This document shows, piece by piece, positions 2 through 56,840 of a stretch of 64,000 nt of DNA; position 1 is the first letter of the stretch; each line of letters opens with the position of its first letter. Origin of the DNA: Rhodothermales bacterium (GTDB lineage Bacteria; Bacteroidota; Rhodothermia; Rhodothermales; JANQRZ01); contig OZ244038.1 of assembly GCA_965215145.1 (NCBI GenBank), forward strand, positions 1,546,966 through 1,610,965, written 5' to 3'. A program made the translations under genes and the position numbers. Below the pieces are notes generated by a model. That model was not told where the DNA came from. It saw only the letters and a program-made list of their open reading frames with translations, and did not search any database.

Positions 2-799
2 CACACGTTCATGGGCGGCCGGAGCTGGAAGGCCGTCGTGGGCATGCTCACGGACCTCCTGCTGGTGGCCGCGTCGTTCGTGATCGCCTACCACCTCCGG
101 TTCGAGAGCGACCTCACGGCCGGGCAGCTCGACCTCCTCCTCGCCGCGCTCCCCGTCGTGGTGGCCGTCAAGATCGTCGTGTTCTGGGCGGCCGGGCTCT
201 ACGAGAACATGTGGCGCCACGCCGGCACCCCGGAGGTCGTCCGCCTCGCCTTCGCGACGATGGTGGCCTCGCTGGCGACGGCGGCGGCGCTCGCCGTCTC
301 GGTCGGGCTGGACGCGCTCTCGCTCGCGGCCCTCTTCATCGACTGGATCGTGGTGACGGCGGCGCTCATCGCGGTGCGCTTCGCGTTCCGCGGCCTTCGG
401 CAGTACGCCTCGGCCCGGCGGCGGCACGGGCGCCACGTCCTCCTCTACGGCGCCGGCGAGGCGGGCCTCCTGTCGCTGCGCGAGCTGCGCCAGAACCCCG
501 ACCTGAAGATGAACCCCGTGGGCTTCCTGGACGATGACCCCCACAAGCAGGGCTTCCGCGTGCAGGGGCTCCGCGTGCTCGGCGGCATCGGGAGCCTGGC
601 CGAGGCGTGCAAGAAGCTCGAGGTCAAGGAGGTCCTCATCGTAGCCCCCAAGATGCCCCTCGACCGGAAGGACGAGATCGTGCGGGCGTGCGCCGAGGCG
701 GGGGTCGATTGTAGCGCCTTCGCCGTCCGGTTCGAGCCGCTCCACATGAACGCGCCGCCCCAGGCGCCGCCCGAAATCGCCGAGCCCGTCGTGGGCTAG
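2..799 (+). CDS. C-terminal part of a polysaccharide biosynthesis protein (4 TM segments plus CoA-binding Rossmann-like domain, CapD/PglF N-terminal-like); probably truncated at the window edge
   Basis: Frame is open from base 2 (HTFMGG...). Motifs GLYENMWRH, VLLYGAGEAG and PVGFLDDDP are typical of CapD/WcaJ CoA-binding regions. Confidence 0.75.
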   Translation, partial: HTFMGGRSWKAVVGMLTDLLLVAASFVIAYHLRFESDLTAGQLDLLLAALPVVVAVKIVVFWAAGLYENMWRHAGTPEVVRLAFATMVASLATAAALAVSVGLDALSLAALFIDWIVVTAALIAVRFAFRGLRQYASARRRHGRHVLLYGAGEAGLLSLRELRQNPDLKMNPVGFLDDDPHKQGFRVQGLRVLGGIGSLAEACKKLEVKEVLIVAPKMPLDRKDEIVRACAEAGVDCSAFAVRFEPLHMNAPPQAPPEIAEPVVG

Positions 800-51880: not shown

Positions 51881-52495
51881 ATGCCCCCGGACGAGAAGGC
51901 CCTCATCGAAGCGTTCCGCGCGGGCGACGAGTTCGCCTTCGTCACCCTCTACAACCGCCACAAGGGCGCCGTCTACGCCTTCGCCGCGAAGATGCTCGTG
52001 GACCGGGCGGCGGCGGAGGACGTGCTGCAGGAGACGTTCGTCCGGGTATACGAGAACCGCGAGCGGCTCGACCGCCCGGGCTCGTTCAAGGCGTGGCTGT
52101 TCACGATCGCGCGCAACCAGTGCCTCAACCACCTCCGCAAGCACCGCCGCGAGGTGGCCTTCGAGGTCGAGCCCGTCGCTGCGGAGACGCCGCTCTCGCG
52201 GCTCGCCAAGAGCGAGCAGGTCGCCCTCGTCAACGGCGTCCTCGAGGGCCTGAAGCCGGAGTACCGCGAGGTCCTCGTGCTGCGGGAGTACCAGGGGCTC
52301 TCCTACGACGAGATCGCCGCGGTGACGCGGAACACGGTCTCGTCGGTGAAGAGCCGGCTGTTCAAGGCGCGCCGGAAGCTCGGCGCCCACCTCCGCCCGC
52401 TCCTAGACCCCGAGGGGGCGCCCTCCGAGAGAGCGCTCTCCGAGGGGGCGTCGGACGCCGCGCCGGCCTCGGCGCCACGCGCAACCCCGCGCTGA
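51881..52495 (+). CDS. ECF RNA polymerase sigma factor
   Basis: AEDVLQETF, FKAWLFTIARN and LSYDEIA...VKSRLFKAR. Confidence 0.94.
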   Translation: MPPDEKALIEAFRAGDEFAFVTLYNRHKGAVYAFAAKMLVDRAAAEDVLQETFVRVYENRERLDRPGSFKAWLFTIARNQCLNHLRKHRREVAFEVEPVAAETPLSRLAKSEQVALVNGVLEGLKPEYREVLVLREYQGLSYDEIAAVTRNTVSSVKSRLFKARRKLGAHLRPLLDPEGAPSERALSEGASDAAPASAPRATPR

Positions 52496-52542
52496 CCCGC
52501 ACCGTCTCCCCACCGGCCCCCGCTCCCCCAGCCTCGAAGACC

Positions 52543-53013
52543 ATGAGCCCCCACGCTGAGGAACTCCTGAACCTGTACGTCGACGGCGAGCTCGCGCTCG
52601 ACCGCCAGGGCGAGCTGTTCGCCCACCTCGCCGAGGACCGCGCGGCGCGCGTGCAGTTCAACGCGCTGATGGCGTTCCGGCTGGCCTCGCGGCAGGAGGC
52701 GCTCCCCGTCCCGCCCGCCGCCGACGCCGCGCTGATGGCGCGGATCGACGAGGTCCGCCGGAACCGGCCGCCCGCCGCGGCGCTGGCCGAGGACCGCCGG
52801 CCCTTTCGCCCGCTCCGCCGGCGGGTGAAGCTGGGGACGGCGCTGGCCGTCGGCGGCGTGCTCGTCGCGCTCTCGGCGCTCGTCGGCCCGCGCGGCCCGG
52901 CCCCCGAGGTCGTGCCCGCGGCCGGGGAGGTCGTCCCCGTGGAGACGGACGGCGGCCCGGTCTACGTCATGCTCCCCGGCGTGACCGTCGAGGACGAGGA
53001 CCTCCGGCAGTAG
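52543..53013 (+). CDS. Putative transmembrane anti-sigma factor
   Basis: LLNLYVDGEL...LFAHLAED zf-HC2-like N-terminus without the Cys residues, one TM. Follows the ECF sigma. Confidence 0.75.
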   Translation: MSPHAEELLNLYVDGELALDRQGELFAHLAEDRAARVQFNALMAFRLASRQEALPVPPAADAALMARIDEVRRNRPPAAALAEDRRPFRPLRRRVKLGTALAVGGVLVALSALVGPRGPAPEVVPAAGEVVPVETDGGPVYVMLPGVTVEDEDLRQ

Positions 53014-53059: not shown

Positions 53060-55195
53060 TCACCGAACGAGCGTGATCCGCTGTGTCGCCGTAGCGCTCC
53101 CGGCCTCGAGACGGACGACGTAGGCCCCGCTCGGCAGCCCGGTCGCATCGAGCCGGAGCGAGTGGTAGCCGGCTTCCAGTCGTCCCTCGCTTACCCGTAC
53201 CACCTCGCGGCCGAGCACGTCGTAGACGGCGAGGCGAATCTCCGCGGCGTCTGGGAGCGCCACGCTCAGCGTCGTCGAGGTGGCGAGGGGGTTCGGGTGC
53301 GCCGTCAGCGAGAGGGCCTCTGGCAACGCGGTGCCCCCGCGGAGAGCGGCCCCGTCCTCACCTCCCTCGTCCGACGCGCTGGCCGGCGTCCCTGGGCCCC
53401 CGTTGCAGATCTCCCCAGGGGGGCACGGGGGCGGGAGCGCCGGGAGGCTCGTAATGACCATCATGTCGGTCCTCTCCGCCCACGGCCCGCACCATACGGT
53501 GACGCGGAGGCGGATATGGGAGTTGCTCATCGTGAGGCGGCACGTCGAGCCCTCGTCGCAGGTGTCGGGTGCCACGCTGCTCGGCGTCGCGTCGCCAGTG
53601 GGGAGATAGGTCTTCTCCCAATGGTAGCCGGTGGGGCTGGGGCAGAAGTTGGCGGCGACGCCGTAGGTGCCCTTCTGGCCCTCGCGGAGCTGGATCGGCC
53701 CGTAGATGGCGAGGGCCGGCGGGGGGGGCGGCGGCGAACCAGCCTCGTAGCCGAGGTGCTCCAGAAGTGGCTCCACGATCTCCGGCGGGACCTCATCGTG
53801 GAAATATGGGTCCTCCGGGACAAGGGTGGTATCGAACCGGCTTGCTCCGTTCACGATGTCGAGCGCGCTGGCGTAGGGAATGAAGGTGGGGTGCTTCTTC
53901 CGATCCGCTTCAACTGTGACATCGAGGGGCAGCGTCCACTTGTTGCCGAAGAAGATAAATGGGTTGAACCCAACGGCCTGGGACTGCCCGATCTCGGAGG
54001 TCTCGACTGGAAGGAGCGAGCCGGGCTGCGCCTCGGGTGAGCCAGGCTCGATGTCGAACCGGGCGTCGGGCCAGGCCGTGATCTGGAGGTGGAGCCATTC
54101 CTCGCCCACATCAGCATTCGGCGCGGCGGTCCCGAACGTTATCCCGACATTGTCCGTGAGGTGGGGGTACCCGTCGCCATTGAGCGCGTTGAGGTCGTTA
54201 AAGAACGCCTCGTGCATGCCCGAACGGTCGTAGCGGTTATAGACGAGGAGCTGCTGCCCGGCCGGGCTGGCGAGGTTGGGAGGCGAACGGAAATCCTCGT
54301 CATCGAGGCCGAGGTCCGTCTCGTAGATCCAATCGATGAGGCCGGCGTCGAGGACGGCCCCCTGGTGCGGCGCGTCGATCGAGACGAAGTGATCGACCTC
54401 GTGAGGTACTCCATCCTCCTCCATCTCCGCGAGGGCGTAGCGCACGGCGACCCCGCCCATACTGACCCCCGCCACGTCGAGCTTCTCGCTCCCGGACTTG
54501 ATCCCGTTGACGTACCGAATGACCTCCCGGACTACCTGAGCGTTCTGGCGGATGTCTCGGCCGCCGTTAGCGAAGTTGAGGATGAGCACGTCGGCGCCAC
54601 GCTCACGGCCGGACCCGAAGAGCTGCGCGCCGAGGGCGTAATAGTGCTGGGGGGAGTTCACGTTGTCGCCGTCGATCCCCTCGACGACGAGGAAGGGCCG
54701 GTCGAGCCCCGAGTAACCCGGCGCGCCTTGCCAAAGAAGCATCCAGTTTCCCGCGCCATCGGTAAAAGCGCGCTGCGCCTCGGGAACAATAACGAGCTGG
54801 AAGGTGCGGTAGATAATGGTACCGCTCAGGAGGGTGTAGCTGAGTTGGACCTCGTACTGGCCTACTGCAGTGGGCCGGCCAGCCCAGAGCACCGGCTCCC
54901 GCGTGTTAGGTCCTAGTCGCAGGATCGTCTCCCAGGATGAATCATCGAGGTCGGGGGGGCACTCGTCGGTGTCGCCGAGGCATACGTCCATGCGGATGTA
55001 GCGGTGGCCTCCCGCATGAAACCATAGGTCCTGGTTGGCGCGGATGGCGATGGGGTCCGTGTAGAGCTCGTTCCTCCAGGCGGCGGCGTAGTAGTTCGAG
55101 TCGAGAATGTCGGGGTCCTCATACCAGCCGTGCTGAGCGGTAGCAGGGGGAGTGAGGAGTACGGCGGCGAGGCCGCAGAGGTAAAGCAGGCGCAT
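53060..55195 (-). CDS. Secreted alpha/beta-hydrolase (PGAP1/DUF676 lipase-like) with T9SS-type C-terminal sorting domain
   Basis: Signal peptide, PFLVVEGID, GVSMGG, SIDAPHQGA, and C-terminus HPNP...VYDVLGREV...LPSGAYVVRL. Confidence 0.82.
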   Translation of the reverse strand: MRLLYLCGLAAVLLTPPATAQHGWYEDPDILDSNYYAAAWRNELYTDPIAIRANQDLWFHAGGHRYIRMDVCLGDTDECPPDLDDSSWETILRLGPNTREPVLWAGRPTAVGQYEVQLSYTLLSGTIIYRTFQLVIVPEAQRAFTDGAGNWMLLWQGAPGYSGLDRPFLVVEGIDGDNVNSPQHYYALGAQLFGSGRERGADVLILNFANGGRDIRQNAQVVREVIRYVNGIKSGSEKLDVAGVSMGGVAVRYALAEMEEDGVPHEVDHFVSIDAPHQGAVLDAGLIDWIYETDLGLDDEDFRSPPNLASPAGQQLLVYNRYDRSGMHEAFFNDLNALNGDGYPHLTDNVGITFGTAAPNADVGEEWLHLQITAWPDARFDIEPGSPEAQPGSLLPVETSEIGQSQAVGFNPFIFFGNKWTLPLDVTVEADRKKHPTFIPYASALDIVNGASRFDTTLVPEDPYFHDEVPPEIVEPLLEHLGYEAGSPPPPPPALAIYGPIQLREGQKGTYGVAANFCPSPTGYHWEKTYLPTGDATPSSVAPDTCDEGSTCRLTMSNSHIRLRVTVWCGPWAERTDMMVITSLPALPPPCPPGEICNGGPGTPASASDEGGEDGAALRGGTALPEALSLTAHPNPLATSTTLSVALPDAAEIRLAVYDVLGREVVRVSEGRLEAGYHSLRLDATGLPSGAYVVRLEAGSATATQRITLVR

Positions 55196-55296
55196 AGTGA
55201 AGATGGCTGTGGTAAATGAAAGGGGTGGTGGAGGGTGTTGCGCTCAGCGCCGGACGTGCGTATCCTGGCGTAGTCGCAGCCTACGCCAGGAATCTC

Positions 55297-55689
55297 ATGA
55301 AGTCAAGCCTGTTAGCTTCCATTTCCGTTCTCCTTTTCCTCTTCTTCACCCTGAGCGGGTGCGAGCTCTTTGAGGGCGAGGAGGACACCGCTGGTGTCGT
55401 CTCGGGGCGCGTCGTCTCGACGGAGACGGGCGCGCCCATCGAGGGGCTCGGCGTCGTGCTCCGCCAAGGCTCTTCGGGGTTCGGCGTCTACCCCACCGTG
55501 GCGGCCGTGCAGACGGGGGCTGACGGCGTCTTCCGCATCAAGTACGATGTCGACACCGGTGACTTTCCCCTTTCCCTGACTATTAACGACGAGCCTTACG
55601 ATAGGCATTACGCGGTGTCTCGGGATTACCTTGACTCTGGTGAGGATCTCCATCTCGGCACCGTTGAGCTCCCCGTGAACGAGCGATGA
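55297..55689 (+). CDS. Lipoprotein cassette 1 (carboxypeptidase-regulatory-like beta sandwich)
   Basis: FTLSGC lipobox; GRVV..ETG.PI.G...TGADG.F; ends LGTVELPVNER. Confidence 0.8.
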   Translation: MKSSLLASISVLLFLFFTLSGCELFEGEEDTAGVVSGRVVSTETGAPIEGLGVVLRQGSSGFGVYPTVAAVQTGADGVFRIKYDVDTGDFPLSLTINDEPYDRHYAVSRDYLDSGEDLHLGTVELPVNER

Positions 55690-56001
55690 CCCGCCGCCCG
55701 GCCTCGCTGACTCTAGCCTCCCTTTTCCTCTTCTTCACCCTGAGCGGGTGCGAGCTCTTCGAAGAGGACGAGGGCGGCTCCTTCGTCGTCCGGTTACCGC
55801 GTTGTGGAATCCACAGTGACCGGTTCGGACGGCGCCTTCGAGCTCAGGCACTCCGAGCGCGACCGGCTCCCCGGCTACCGACTCGTCGTCAACGATGATC
55901 TCGAAAACCCAGACTACATATCGTCTAGGGAGACGGTGTACCCCTCGGCGGGCGAGACGGTAAACCTAGGCACGATCGAGCTTCGCTTGACCGAGCGATG
56001 A
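55686..56001 (+). pseudogene. Lipoprotein cassette 2, internal deletion with frameshift
   Basis: N-terminus (FTLSGCELF) and C-terminus (TGSDGAF...LGTIELRLTER) lie in different frames. The GRVV...ETG segment is missing. Confidence 0.78.
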
Positions 56002-56372
56002 GGTCTCGCCTTCTGGCCCTCGCTCTCCTCTTCACCCTGAGCGGGTGCGGCCTCTTCGGGGAGGACGACCTCGGGGTCGTCGTGACGGGCCGCGTCGTCC
56101 TGGCCGAGACGGGCGAGCCAATCGCAGACCTCGGCGTTGCTCTCATTCAGGGCTCAGCGGGCTTCGGGGTTTACTTCACTGTAGCGACGGCACGAACGGG
56201 CTCGGACGGTGGCTTCCGTGTGGAGTACAATGCGGAATCCAGCGACGCCGGCCTCGCACTCACTGTCAATGACGAGCCCTATAATAGCCGGTACACACTG
56301 ATCAGGGAGTACCTCCGACCGGGTGAAGATCTCCACCTCGGCACGGTCGTGCTCTGCCTGAACGAATCATGA
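55998..56372 (+). CDS. Lipoprotein cassette 3
   Basis: FTLSGC; close paralogue of cassette 1 (QGSxGFGVY, NDEPY, GEDLHLGTV). Confidence 0.82.
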   Translation: MRSRLLALALLFTLSGCGLFGEDDLGVVVTGRVVLAETGEPIADLGVALIQGSAGFGVYFTVATARTGSDGGFRVEYNAESSDAGLALTVNDEPYNSRYTLIREYLRPGEDLHLGTVVLCLNES

Positions 56373-56651
56373 GACCCCACCTCCCGGCCCTCGCTCTCCT
56401 CTTCCTCTTCTTCACCCTGAGCGGGTGCGAGCTCTTCGAGGAGGACGACCGCGAGGTCGTCATGGCCGGCCGCGTCGTCCTGGCCGAGACGGGCGAGCCG
56501 ATCTCCGGCCTCGGCATCTCGCTTCGGCGAGGGACGGCTGGGTAACGACGCTCCTTACAACGACCGGTACACGACGGCCGGTCAAACGAGCATCCTCGCT
56601 GGAGAGGAGGTCGGCATGGGCACCGTCGAGCTCCGCCTGAACGGGCGGTAA
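56369..56651 (+). pseudogene. Lipoprotein cassette 4, truncated
   Basis: MRPHLP...FTLSGCELF...GRVVLAETGEPISG stops at TAA 56543-56545. The conserved tail MGTVELRLNGR* is in another frame. Confidence 0.75.
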
Positions 56652-56689
56652 CGCGCGGCTCGCTCGCGCAGGGGGGAGATACTAAAACG

Positions 56690-56727
56690 CGCGCCGCCGC
56701 TCGGCCGGAGCCGAGCGGCGGCGTGCT
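56690..56727. terminator. Strong hairpin after the lipoprotein array
   Basis: cgccgccgctcggc-cgga-gccgagcggcggcg. Confidence 0.65.
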
Positions 56728-56840
56728 TCCCTTCACCATGAAGCGGGGCTTCCCTAAGGCCCCTCTGGATGCTCGTAGAACGGGACGAGCGGCCCGTTTA
56801 GCGTGCGCGGCGCGGTCTGCGACGTGCGGAAGCGAGTGCC

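Follow-up and report, generated by a model that had tools for sequence, protein, structure and literature searches.

Why does the gene for a predicted secreted hydrolase stand head-to-head with a tandem series of paralogous lipoprotein genes, and might those lipoproteins be its inhibitors? The question is raised by a locus within a 64,000-nucleotide stretch of Rhodothermales bacterium DNA (GenBank assembly GCA_965215145.1, contig OZ244038.1, positions 1,546,966 to 1,610,965), referred to here in its full length as the window, with positions counted from its first letter. The locus contains a 711-aa hydrolase carrying a signal peptide, a GVSMGG motif and a sorting domain for the T9SS (type IX secretion system), and four lipoprotein genes, here termed cassettes, that are transcribed in the opposite direction (Table 1). 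The enzyme and the cassette array are a mobile two-part module that recurs among Rhodothermales genomes, and the two parts are likely tied in function. The reading preferred here, which we hold tentatively and would not yet call probable, is that of a secreted lipase or esterase whose neighbouring lipoproteins form a polymorphic set of inhibitors cognate to it.

Linkage and mobility of the module

Both families were sought in 285 Rhodothermales genomes, with E <= 1e-20 as the threshold for a hydrolase homologue, a profile E < 1e-20 for a strong cassette match, and E <= 1e-6 for calling absence. A hydrolase homologue is present in 17 of the 285 genomes and strong cassette matches are present in 13, five of which have them directly beside the hydrolase; where both families are present they are always adjacent. 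The number of cassettes per linked genome ranges from two to six. The source genome (G000) has four at the hydrolase, G006 and G029 have two each, G002 has at least four distributed across two contig ends, and G005 has five cassette open reading frames (ORFs), one of which is an in-frame fusion, giving six profile matches. Four of the five linked genomes are from one family (f1) and G029 is from a second. There are two gene orders, with the cassettes divergent from the hydrolase in family f1 and downstream of it on the same strand in G029. The initial annotation proposed asking whether hydrolase homologues are regularly accompanied by differing numbers of these lipoproteins; in the five linked genomes they are, but the link does not hold throughout, as 12 of the 17 hydrolase-bearing genomes contain no cassette of this family and eight cassette-bearing genomes contain no hydrolase match. 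A metagenome scan for further loci returned only four short contigs with uninformative flanks.

The module is found in at least four genomic contexts. In the source genome and G005 it follows an extracytoplasmic function (ECF) sigma/anti-sigma pair, with a PPIase gene in the shared flank; the genes flanking the source locus are those for the PPIase, the ECF sigma factor, a member of the sigma-70 family and a kynureninase-like protein. In G002 the module adjoins an ileS-like gene, in G029 it is located shortly upstream of genes for ribosomal proteins (a naming based on their translations alone), and in G006 the flanks differ from those of the other linked genomes. Because adjacency is retained across these contexts and in both gene orders, the enzyme and the array move as one unit. 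The GC content of the module is 0.64–0.67 compared with 0.72 for the window, and the G029 cassettes (L032 10300-11430) have a GC content of 0.46 compared with 0.65 for their locus. After the second cassette in G029 there is a 75-aa duplicate of the hydrolase's sorting-domain end, which suggests tandem duplication of a unit spanning the sorting-domain end through a cassette. At the other contig end of G002 the array includes a second copy of a 5' fragment from the ileS-like gene, which follows the hydrolase (L039 1158-1460; L034 2550-5810).

The slot after the ECF sigma/anti-sigma pair (window 51881-53013; L084, L085, L086) varies among relatives. In G007 the genes found there are for a subtilase bearing a T9SS sorting domain, for a PD40 lipoprotein and for a further T9SS cargo protein, and in G003 and G004 the pair is followed by housekeeping-looking genes, including a tRNA-synthetase-like gene that comes directly after the pair in G004 and second in G003. 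A regulatory tie between the module and the sigma/anti-sigma pair was considered and rejected, as G003 and G004 have the pair without the module.

Cassettes are also found away from the hydrolase. The eight genomes with a strong cassette match and no hydrolase match are from another family and are 76–94% complete; each contains one strong match, in some cases together with weaker ones. One solitary cassette follows a gene of the Omp85 family that has PD40 repeats, and others are inside small insertions with duplicated gene ends on both sides. In G143 (L071 1-2073) a solitary cassette and a PIN-like ORF are situated between duplicated 3' ends of an Omp85-family gene, and in G140 (L072 1-1824) a solitary cassette and a small ORF are situated between duplicated 3' ends of a metK-like gene; in both cases the appearance is that of a small insertion at the end of a gene. 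Arrays of four or more cassettes are seen solely beside the hydrolase, and elsewhere there are pairs at most (G167, G177). In a rough neighbour-joining tree, built without support values, solitary and array copies interleave and cassette subtypes cross genera, with one subtype common to G005, G006 and G002.

Loci with more distant hydrolase homologues (L052, L053/L088, L055, L089, L091 and L093) were examined for small exported neighbours. An unrelated small gene encoding a lipoprotein or a signal-peptide protein often adjoins these cassette-less homologues (L055 9925-10894, L091 7015-7584, L089 229-492 and L052 9112-9657), an observation that, for want of a background rate, is not counted as evidence. 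One such neighbour is a glycine-zipper protein gene that overlaps the hydrolase stop codon.

Anatomy of the cassette array

The initial annotation described four paralogous lipoprotein cassettes joined by ATGA stop/start overlaps, two of them intact and two broken, head-to-head with the hydrolase, and all of these features are present. The lipobox LSGC ends the signal peptide of all four cassettes, and the ATGA overlap is found at all three junctions (3/3). Cassettes 1 and 3 (cas1 and cas3) are intact and share 60% identity; cas1 matches the cassette profile with E 1.3e-44, and its longest ORF begins at 55216. Cassettes 2 and 4 (cas2 and cas4) are frameshifted, lacking 80 and 104 columns, respectively, in a DNA alignment of the cassettes. 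In cas2 the C-terminal half is out of frame with the signal peptide and the profile matches are split (positions 5-25 and 54-123). The cas4 matches are similarly split (positions 6-53 and 91-122), with a stop codon at 56544-56546 and a C-terminal remnant that extends to a TAA at 56649-56651. The DNA of the signal-peptide segment is near-identical in the four cassettes, and paralogues inside one array are only 31–78% identical.

Independently assembled contigs from one public sequencing run tile positions 53207-56800 with no differences, both deletion junctions included, although this run may itself be the source of the genome. In the same run the summed contig depth at 53127-53253, within the sorting-domain coding region, is ~3400 compared with ~17 elsewhere, presumably from short contigs of many similar sorting domains.

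The strong hairpin that was reported to close the array is likewise present, and its core is a perfect 17-bp stem (56689-56705 pairing with 56710-56726) with a folding energy of -53.6 kcal/mol (z = -4.36; equalled by 0 of 200 shuffles). A terminator scan makes no call for 56689-56726 because the hairpin has no T-run. At the opposite end of the array, the intergenic region shared with the hydrolase gene presumably contains both promoters; a scan for sigma-70-type sites, which does not extend to the promoter types of this phylum, found none in it.

The G005 locus differs in its hydrolase gene (L029 7744-9870), which is interrupted by an in-frame TGA situated past the catalytic domain and ahead of the sorting domain. 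Beyond this codon the same frame runs on through the second beta domain and the sorting domain, and the five to six neighbouring cassettes are open. The TGA could be a real nonsense mutation or an error in the metagenome-assembled genome.

Table 1. Features of the hydrolase-cassette locus. Positions are those of the window unless given as residues of the hydrolase.
Feature	Position	Strand	Description
Hydrolase ORF	53060-55195	-	711 aa; translation begins MRLLYLCGLAAVLLTPPATAQ
Signal peptide	residues 1-20		MRLLYLCGLAAVLLTPPATA-QH; read off the translation, plausible
N-terminal beta-sandwich	residues ~25-155		AlphaFold2 model
Alpha/beta-hydrolase core	residues ~160-485		AlphaFold2 model and fold matches
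Ser245 codon, GVSMGG nucleophile	54461..54463	-	S245 invariant in 23/23 family members
Second beta domain	residues ~495-585		AlphaFold2 model
Disordered linker	residues ~598-624		AlphaFold2 model
T9SS type-A C-terminal sorting domain	53063..53311	-	residues ~629-711
Divergent intergenic region	55196..55296	.	101 bp, hydrolase start to cas1 start
Four lipoprotein cassettes, tandem	55297-56651	+	divergent from the hydrolase
Cassette 1 (cas1)	55297-55689	+	intact, 130 aa; probable start MKSS
Cassette 2 (cas2)	55686-56001	+	broken, ~80 nt deletion, frameshift
Cassette 3 (cas3)	55998-56372	+	intact, 124 aa
Cassette 4 (cas4)	56369-56651	+	broken, ~104 nt deletion, frameshift
GC-rich closing hairpin	56671..56734	+	core 56689-56726

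The hydrolase and its export signals

By fold and motif the enzyme is predicted to be an alpha/beta serine hydrolase of the lipase/esterase type. The AlphaFold2 model has a mean pLDDT (predicted local distance difference test score) of 80.8. Residues G243, G247 and G248 are, like the nucleophile serine, invariant in 23/23 sequences of the hydrolase family, and D446 (in SALDI) and H466 (in FHD) are at least 90% conserved among the 23 relatives; the order and spacing are as expected, and Ser245-Asp446-His466 is the probable catalytic triad. A structural search against 48,161 PDB representatives finds 6wpx at Z 17.9 and ~50 further hydrolases at Z 15–18 over residues ~140-485. These are effectively tied and include lipases (BlEst2, CalB and one from Streptomyces), along with feruloyl esterases, PGAP1/Bst1 and palmitoyl-protein thioesterase 2, and a cutinase and a PETase are in the same range. 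Since all of these score Z 15–18, a lipase is not separable from a feruloyl esterase, a cutinase or a thioesterase, and the label "lipase" is a reasonable one for a predicted esterase/lipase. A sequence search of the PDB yields just a sorting domain, at E 0.0058, and, at E 0.017, palmitoyl-protein thioesterase 2. A multi-domain resemblance to GH2 enzymes, seen with Foldseek using the whole 711-aa model, proved spurious (template modelling score, TM, 0.14) and was replaced by the wide structural search.

The family assignments suggested in the initial annotation are upheld in part. TIGR04183 and DUF676 (24.1 bits; cut-off 20.3) pass, but PGAP1 (PF07819; 21.0 bits) is under its gathering score of 24.3, and CarboxypepD_reg, sought in the cassettes, is also under its cut-off. 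The Abhydrolase_1 score of 25.8 bits equals the cut-off, and the Palm_thioest and LCAT matches are under theirs; a precomputed PF07819 match exists for 3 of the 23 hydrolase family members. The relatives form 23 clusters in 5.8 billion proteins, none of them informatively named, and there is no paralogue of the enzyme core in the source genome.

The proposed export route agrees with the domain searches. The sorting domain scores 36.3 bits with TIGR04183 (cut-off 23) and 28.7 bits with PF18962 (Por_Secre_tail; cut-off 27), with domain matches spanning residues 633-707, and the genome encodes SprA (TIGR04189, 1572 bits; cut-off 200), the sole T9SS component sought. On these matches the hydrolase is predicted to be a true T9SS type-A cargo protein. 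The source genome is a single contig of 3.67 Mb with a GC content of ~72%, in which at least 150 other ORFs have a sorting domain like that of the hydrolase, a very large type-A cargo repertoire.

Fold and wider family of the cassettes

The cas3 product is modelled by AlphaFold2 as a seven-stranded beta-sandwich (pLDDT 86.4), and its closest Foldseek matches are transthyretin-related proteins (TM ~0.5, probability 1.0); on this model the cassettes are transthyretin-like beta-sandwich lipoproteins. The scores with CarboxypepD_reg (PF13620) are 26.2 bits for cas1 and 21.6 bits for cas3, both under the cut-off of 32.3, and no known Tli family is matched in Pfam or NCBIfam. Among 1.84 billion representative proteins the cassette profile has 742 matches at E <= 1e-10, including many multi-repeat CarboxypepD_reg proteins; among the best 150 of these, ~45 are stand-alone proteins of ~98–146 aa and the others are large multi-repeat proteins.

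The mature N-termini are acidic (C-E-L-F-E-G-E-E-D and C-G-L-F-G-E-D-D). A crude prediction of lipoproteins in the source genome gives 148, of which 55 carry three or more acidic residues at positions +2 to +10, and the genome has a single SusD homologue from which to derive a surface export signal. An argument for localisation from the acidic N-terminus was dropped, since such N-termini are common in the genome and only one SusD homologue is present.

Possible functions of the lipoproteins

The functional tie between hydrolase and cassettes is likely because they stay adjacent in several contexts and in both gene orders. The cassettes could instead be an envelope lipoprotein family with a role of its own, placed beside the hydrolase by descent and co-transfer, that expands in variable regions and neighbours the hydrolase in a few related genomes. 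Such independence would fit the solitary cassettes of the eight hydrolase-less genomes (including the one after the Omp85-family gene with PD40 repeats), the 12 hydrolase-bearing genomes without cassettes, the ~45 stand-alone proteins among the best 150 library representatives, and the concentration of four of the five linked genomes in one family. We nonetheless regard it as unlikely, since adjacency extends through at least four contexts, two gene orders and a second taxonomic family, and arrays of four or more occur only beside the hydrolase.

The form that the tie takes is less certain. The preference for cognate inhibitors, conferring immunity, stems from the divergence of the paralogues, the changes in copy number, the broken, fused and orphan copies, the array beside the interrupted G005 hydrolase, and the precedent of the Tle lipase effectors and their Tli immunity proteins. 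By analogy, the diverged, broken, fused and orphan copies resemble the immunity genes of polymorphic toxins and are less like a single dedicated cofactor. The same linkage is equally compatible with non-inhibitory partners, namely surface-exposed anchors, adaptors or substrate binders that would keep the secreted esterase, or the substrate it acts on, on the cell surface and would thereby resemble in role the surface lipoproteins, also beta-sandwiches, found in Bacteroidota uptake loci. Beta-sandwiches are typical binding modules, the acidic mature N-termini loosely resemble a Bacteroidetes lipoprotein export signal to the surface (as described in PMC5080379), and a transthyretin-fold extension of VgrG is reported to bind the lipase Tle1 as a carrier (PMC9860674). 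However, a dedicated partner is expected to be single-copy and to be lost with its enzyme, whereas the cassettes are multiple, diverged and partly broken, have strong matches in eight genomes without the hydrolase, and are kept as an array beside the truncated hydrolase of G005; moreover, acidic N-termini are common among the lipoproteins of this genome and the position of the signal is unlike the published one. A non-inhibitory partnership is accordingly rated as rather unlikely. It is highly improbable that the enzyme acts on the lipoproteins as its substrates or yields them as its products, for instance as a thioesterase-like or lipase-like deacylase that releases or remodels them. The weak PDB relative palmitoyl-protein thioesterase 2 (Z 16.7 in the structural search) and the lipid-deacylating Pfam matches (DUF676, PGAP1, Palm_thioest and LCAT, mostly under cut-offs) point in that direction, but they are weak and tied with many other esterases, nothing else favours it, and orphan and broken copies would be left unexplained.

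The inhibitor reading can be set out as a mechanism that begins from the observed domain content, array anatomy, linkage and mobility of the module, and that would add to them binding, inhibition, a lipid substrate and an antibacterial role. The Sec-exported serine hydrolase would fold in the periplasm and then cross the outer membrane by way of the T9SS. Its partners would be the tandem, diverged paralogous lipoproteins, each ~105 aa in mature form with a transthyretin-like beta-sandwich, acting as cognate binding inhibitors that protect the producer's own envelope either during periplasmic transit or after release of the enzyme. Extra and orphan cassettes would protect against variant hydrolases of neighbouring strains. 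Unequal recombination between the near-identical signal-peptide segments may remodel the array, producing changes in copy number, fusions and broken copies. Prediction of a complex between hydrolase residues 21-590 and mature cassette 1, with separate alignments for the two chains, scored 0.00 in both of two runs made with no controls, and is neutral on binding. In its fullest form, the proposal is of a T9SS-exported antibacterial lipase/esterase with polymorphic transthyretin-fold immunity lipoproteins in recombining arrays, with orphan copies circulating in Rhodothermales; we consider this complete picture doubtful.

Several points weigh against inhibition and, in particular, against an antibacterial role. 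With 12 of the 17 hydrolase-bearing genomes lacking cassettes at E <= 1e-6, an obligate immunity protein would need to be replaced there by unrelated proteins, and no cassette was seen near the more distant hydrolase homologues examined. Immunity genes are usually co-transcribed with their toxin, and the cassettes are divergent from the enzyme in four of the five linked genomes. The at least 150 T9SS cargo genes of the source genome presumably encode mostly degradative or surface proteins, which gives a high prior for a nutritional esterase. The fold matches of the hydrolase tie lipases with other esterases, the transthyretin-like fold of the cassettes is generic, and binding, lipase activity and toxicity are all putative here. 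A full-text literature search, which covered main texts, turned up no T9SS effector with a documented immunity partner.

Established roles of the T9SS are in gliding motility, surface coats and degradative enzymes. A role in bacterial warfare has been put forward only as a hypothesis (PMC7073777). If the antibacterial reading were true, the system would gain a role in interbacterial competition. If the lipoproteins are inhibitors, they would constitute a new inhibitor family for alpha/beta hydrolases and a genomic marker for further secreted toxins in the Fibrobacteres-Chlorobi-Bacteroidetes (FCB) group; if they are not, the locus would still be a clear case of a cargo gene that travels with a dedicated lipoprotein partner. 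The module is compact, with one enzyme and small lipoproteins, and has natural intact, broken, fused and orphan variants, which makes it directly testable by co-expression.

Comparison with known systems

The module shares with ordinary T9SS type-A cargo of Bacteroidota and Rhodothermota a signal peptide, an enzyme core, an immunoglobulin-like or PKD-like beta domain and a sorting domain. It differs in having, tied to the enzyme and moving with it, a polymorphic array of tandem lipoproteins. To our knowledge no T9SS cargo gene with such an array has been described, and the literature search, with the same coverage of main texts, found none with a comparable array. The seven-stranded beta-sandwich of the cassettes is shared with the carboxypeptidase regulatory-like and transthyretin-like domains of the PF13620 clan, from which the cassettes differ in being stand-alone, ~120–140 aa in length, with a family-specific C-[DEG]-L-F start and sub-cut-off Pfam scores. 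The CarboxypepD_reg domain family has no defined function.

The closest conceptual parallel is with the Tle1–Tle4 lipase effectors of the T6SS (type VI secretion system) and their Tli proteins, especially Tle4/TplE with Tli4. Tli-type immunity genes can be multiple. The precedent invoked in the initial annotation holds, in that Tle4/TplE has a PGAP1-like domain (PMC9846239), lipase effectors with GxSxG or PGAP1-like features are described as neutralised by neighbouring periplasmic or lipoprotein Tli proteins (PMC9846239, PMC9860674), and PldB is described with three immunity proteins (PMC13736854). Shared features are an alpha/beta serine hydrolase that has a nucleophile of the GxSxG type and a Ser-Asp-His triad (predicted here), adjoining genes for exported proteins or lipoproteins, and a weak PGAP1-like resemblance. 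Unlike these systems, the module has a Sec signal and a T9SS sorting domain for export in place of the T6SS, and no T6SS gene is present in its flanks, the only part of the genome searched for one. The PGAP1 match of the enzyme is under the Pfam cut-off and the cassettes belong to no known Tli family. The enzyme therefore falls outside Tle4 and the resemblance is a conceptual one, with toxicity and neutralisation putative for the module.

Use of the T9SS has been hypothesised for the TANFOR toxins of Bacteroidetes (PMC7073777, 2020). With polymorphic toxin loci that have orphan immunity genes, such as those of contact-dependent inhibition (CDI) and Rhs systems, the module shares variable tandem arrays, broken, fused and orphan copies, and duplicated fragments at the edges. 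The enzyme here, however, has no swappable toxin tip at its C terminus and only the lipoprotein varies; the duplicated fragment in G029 is a sorting domain and not a toxin domain.

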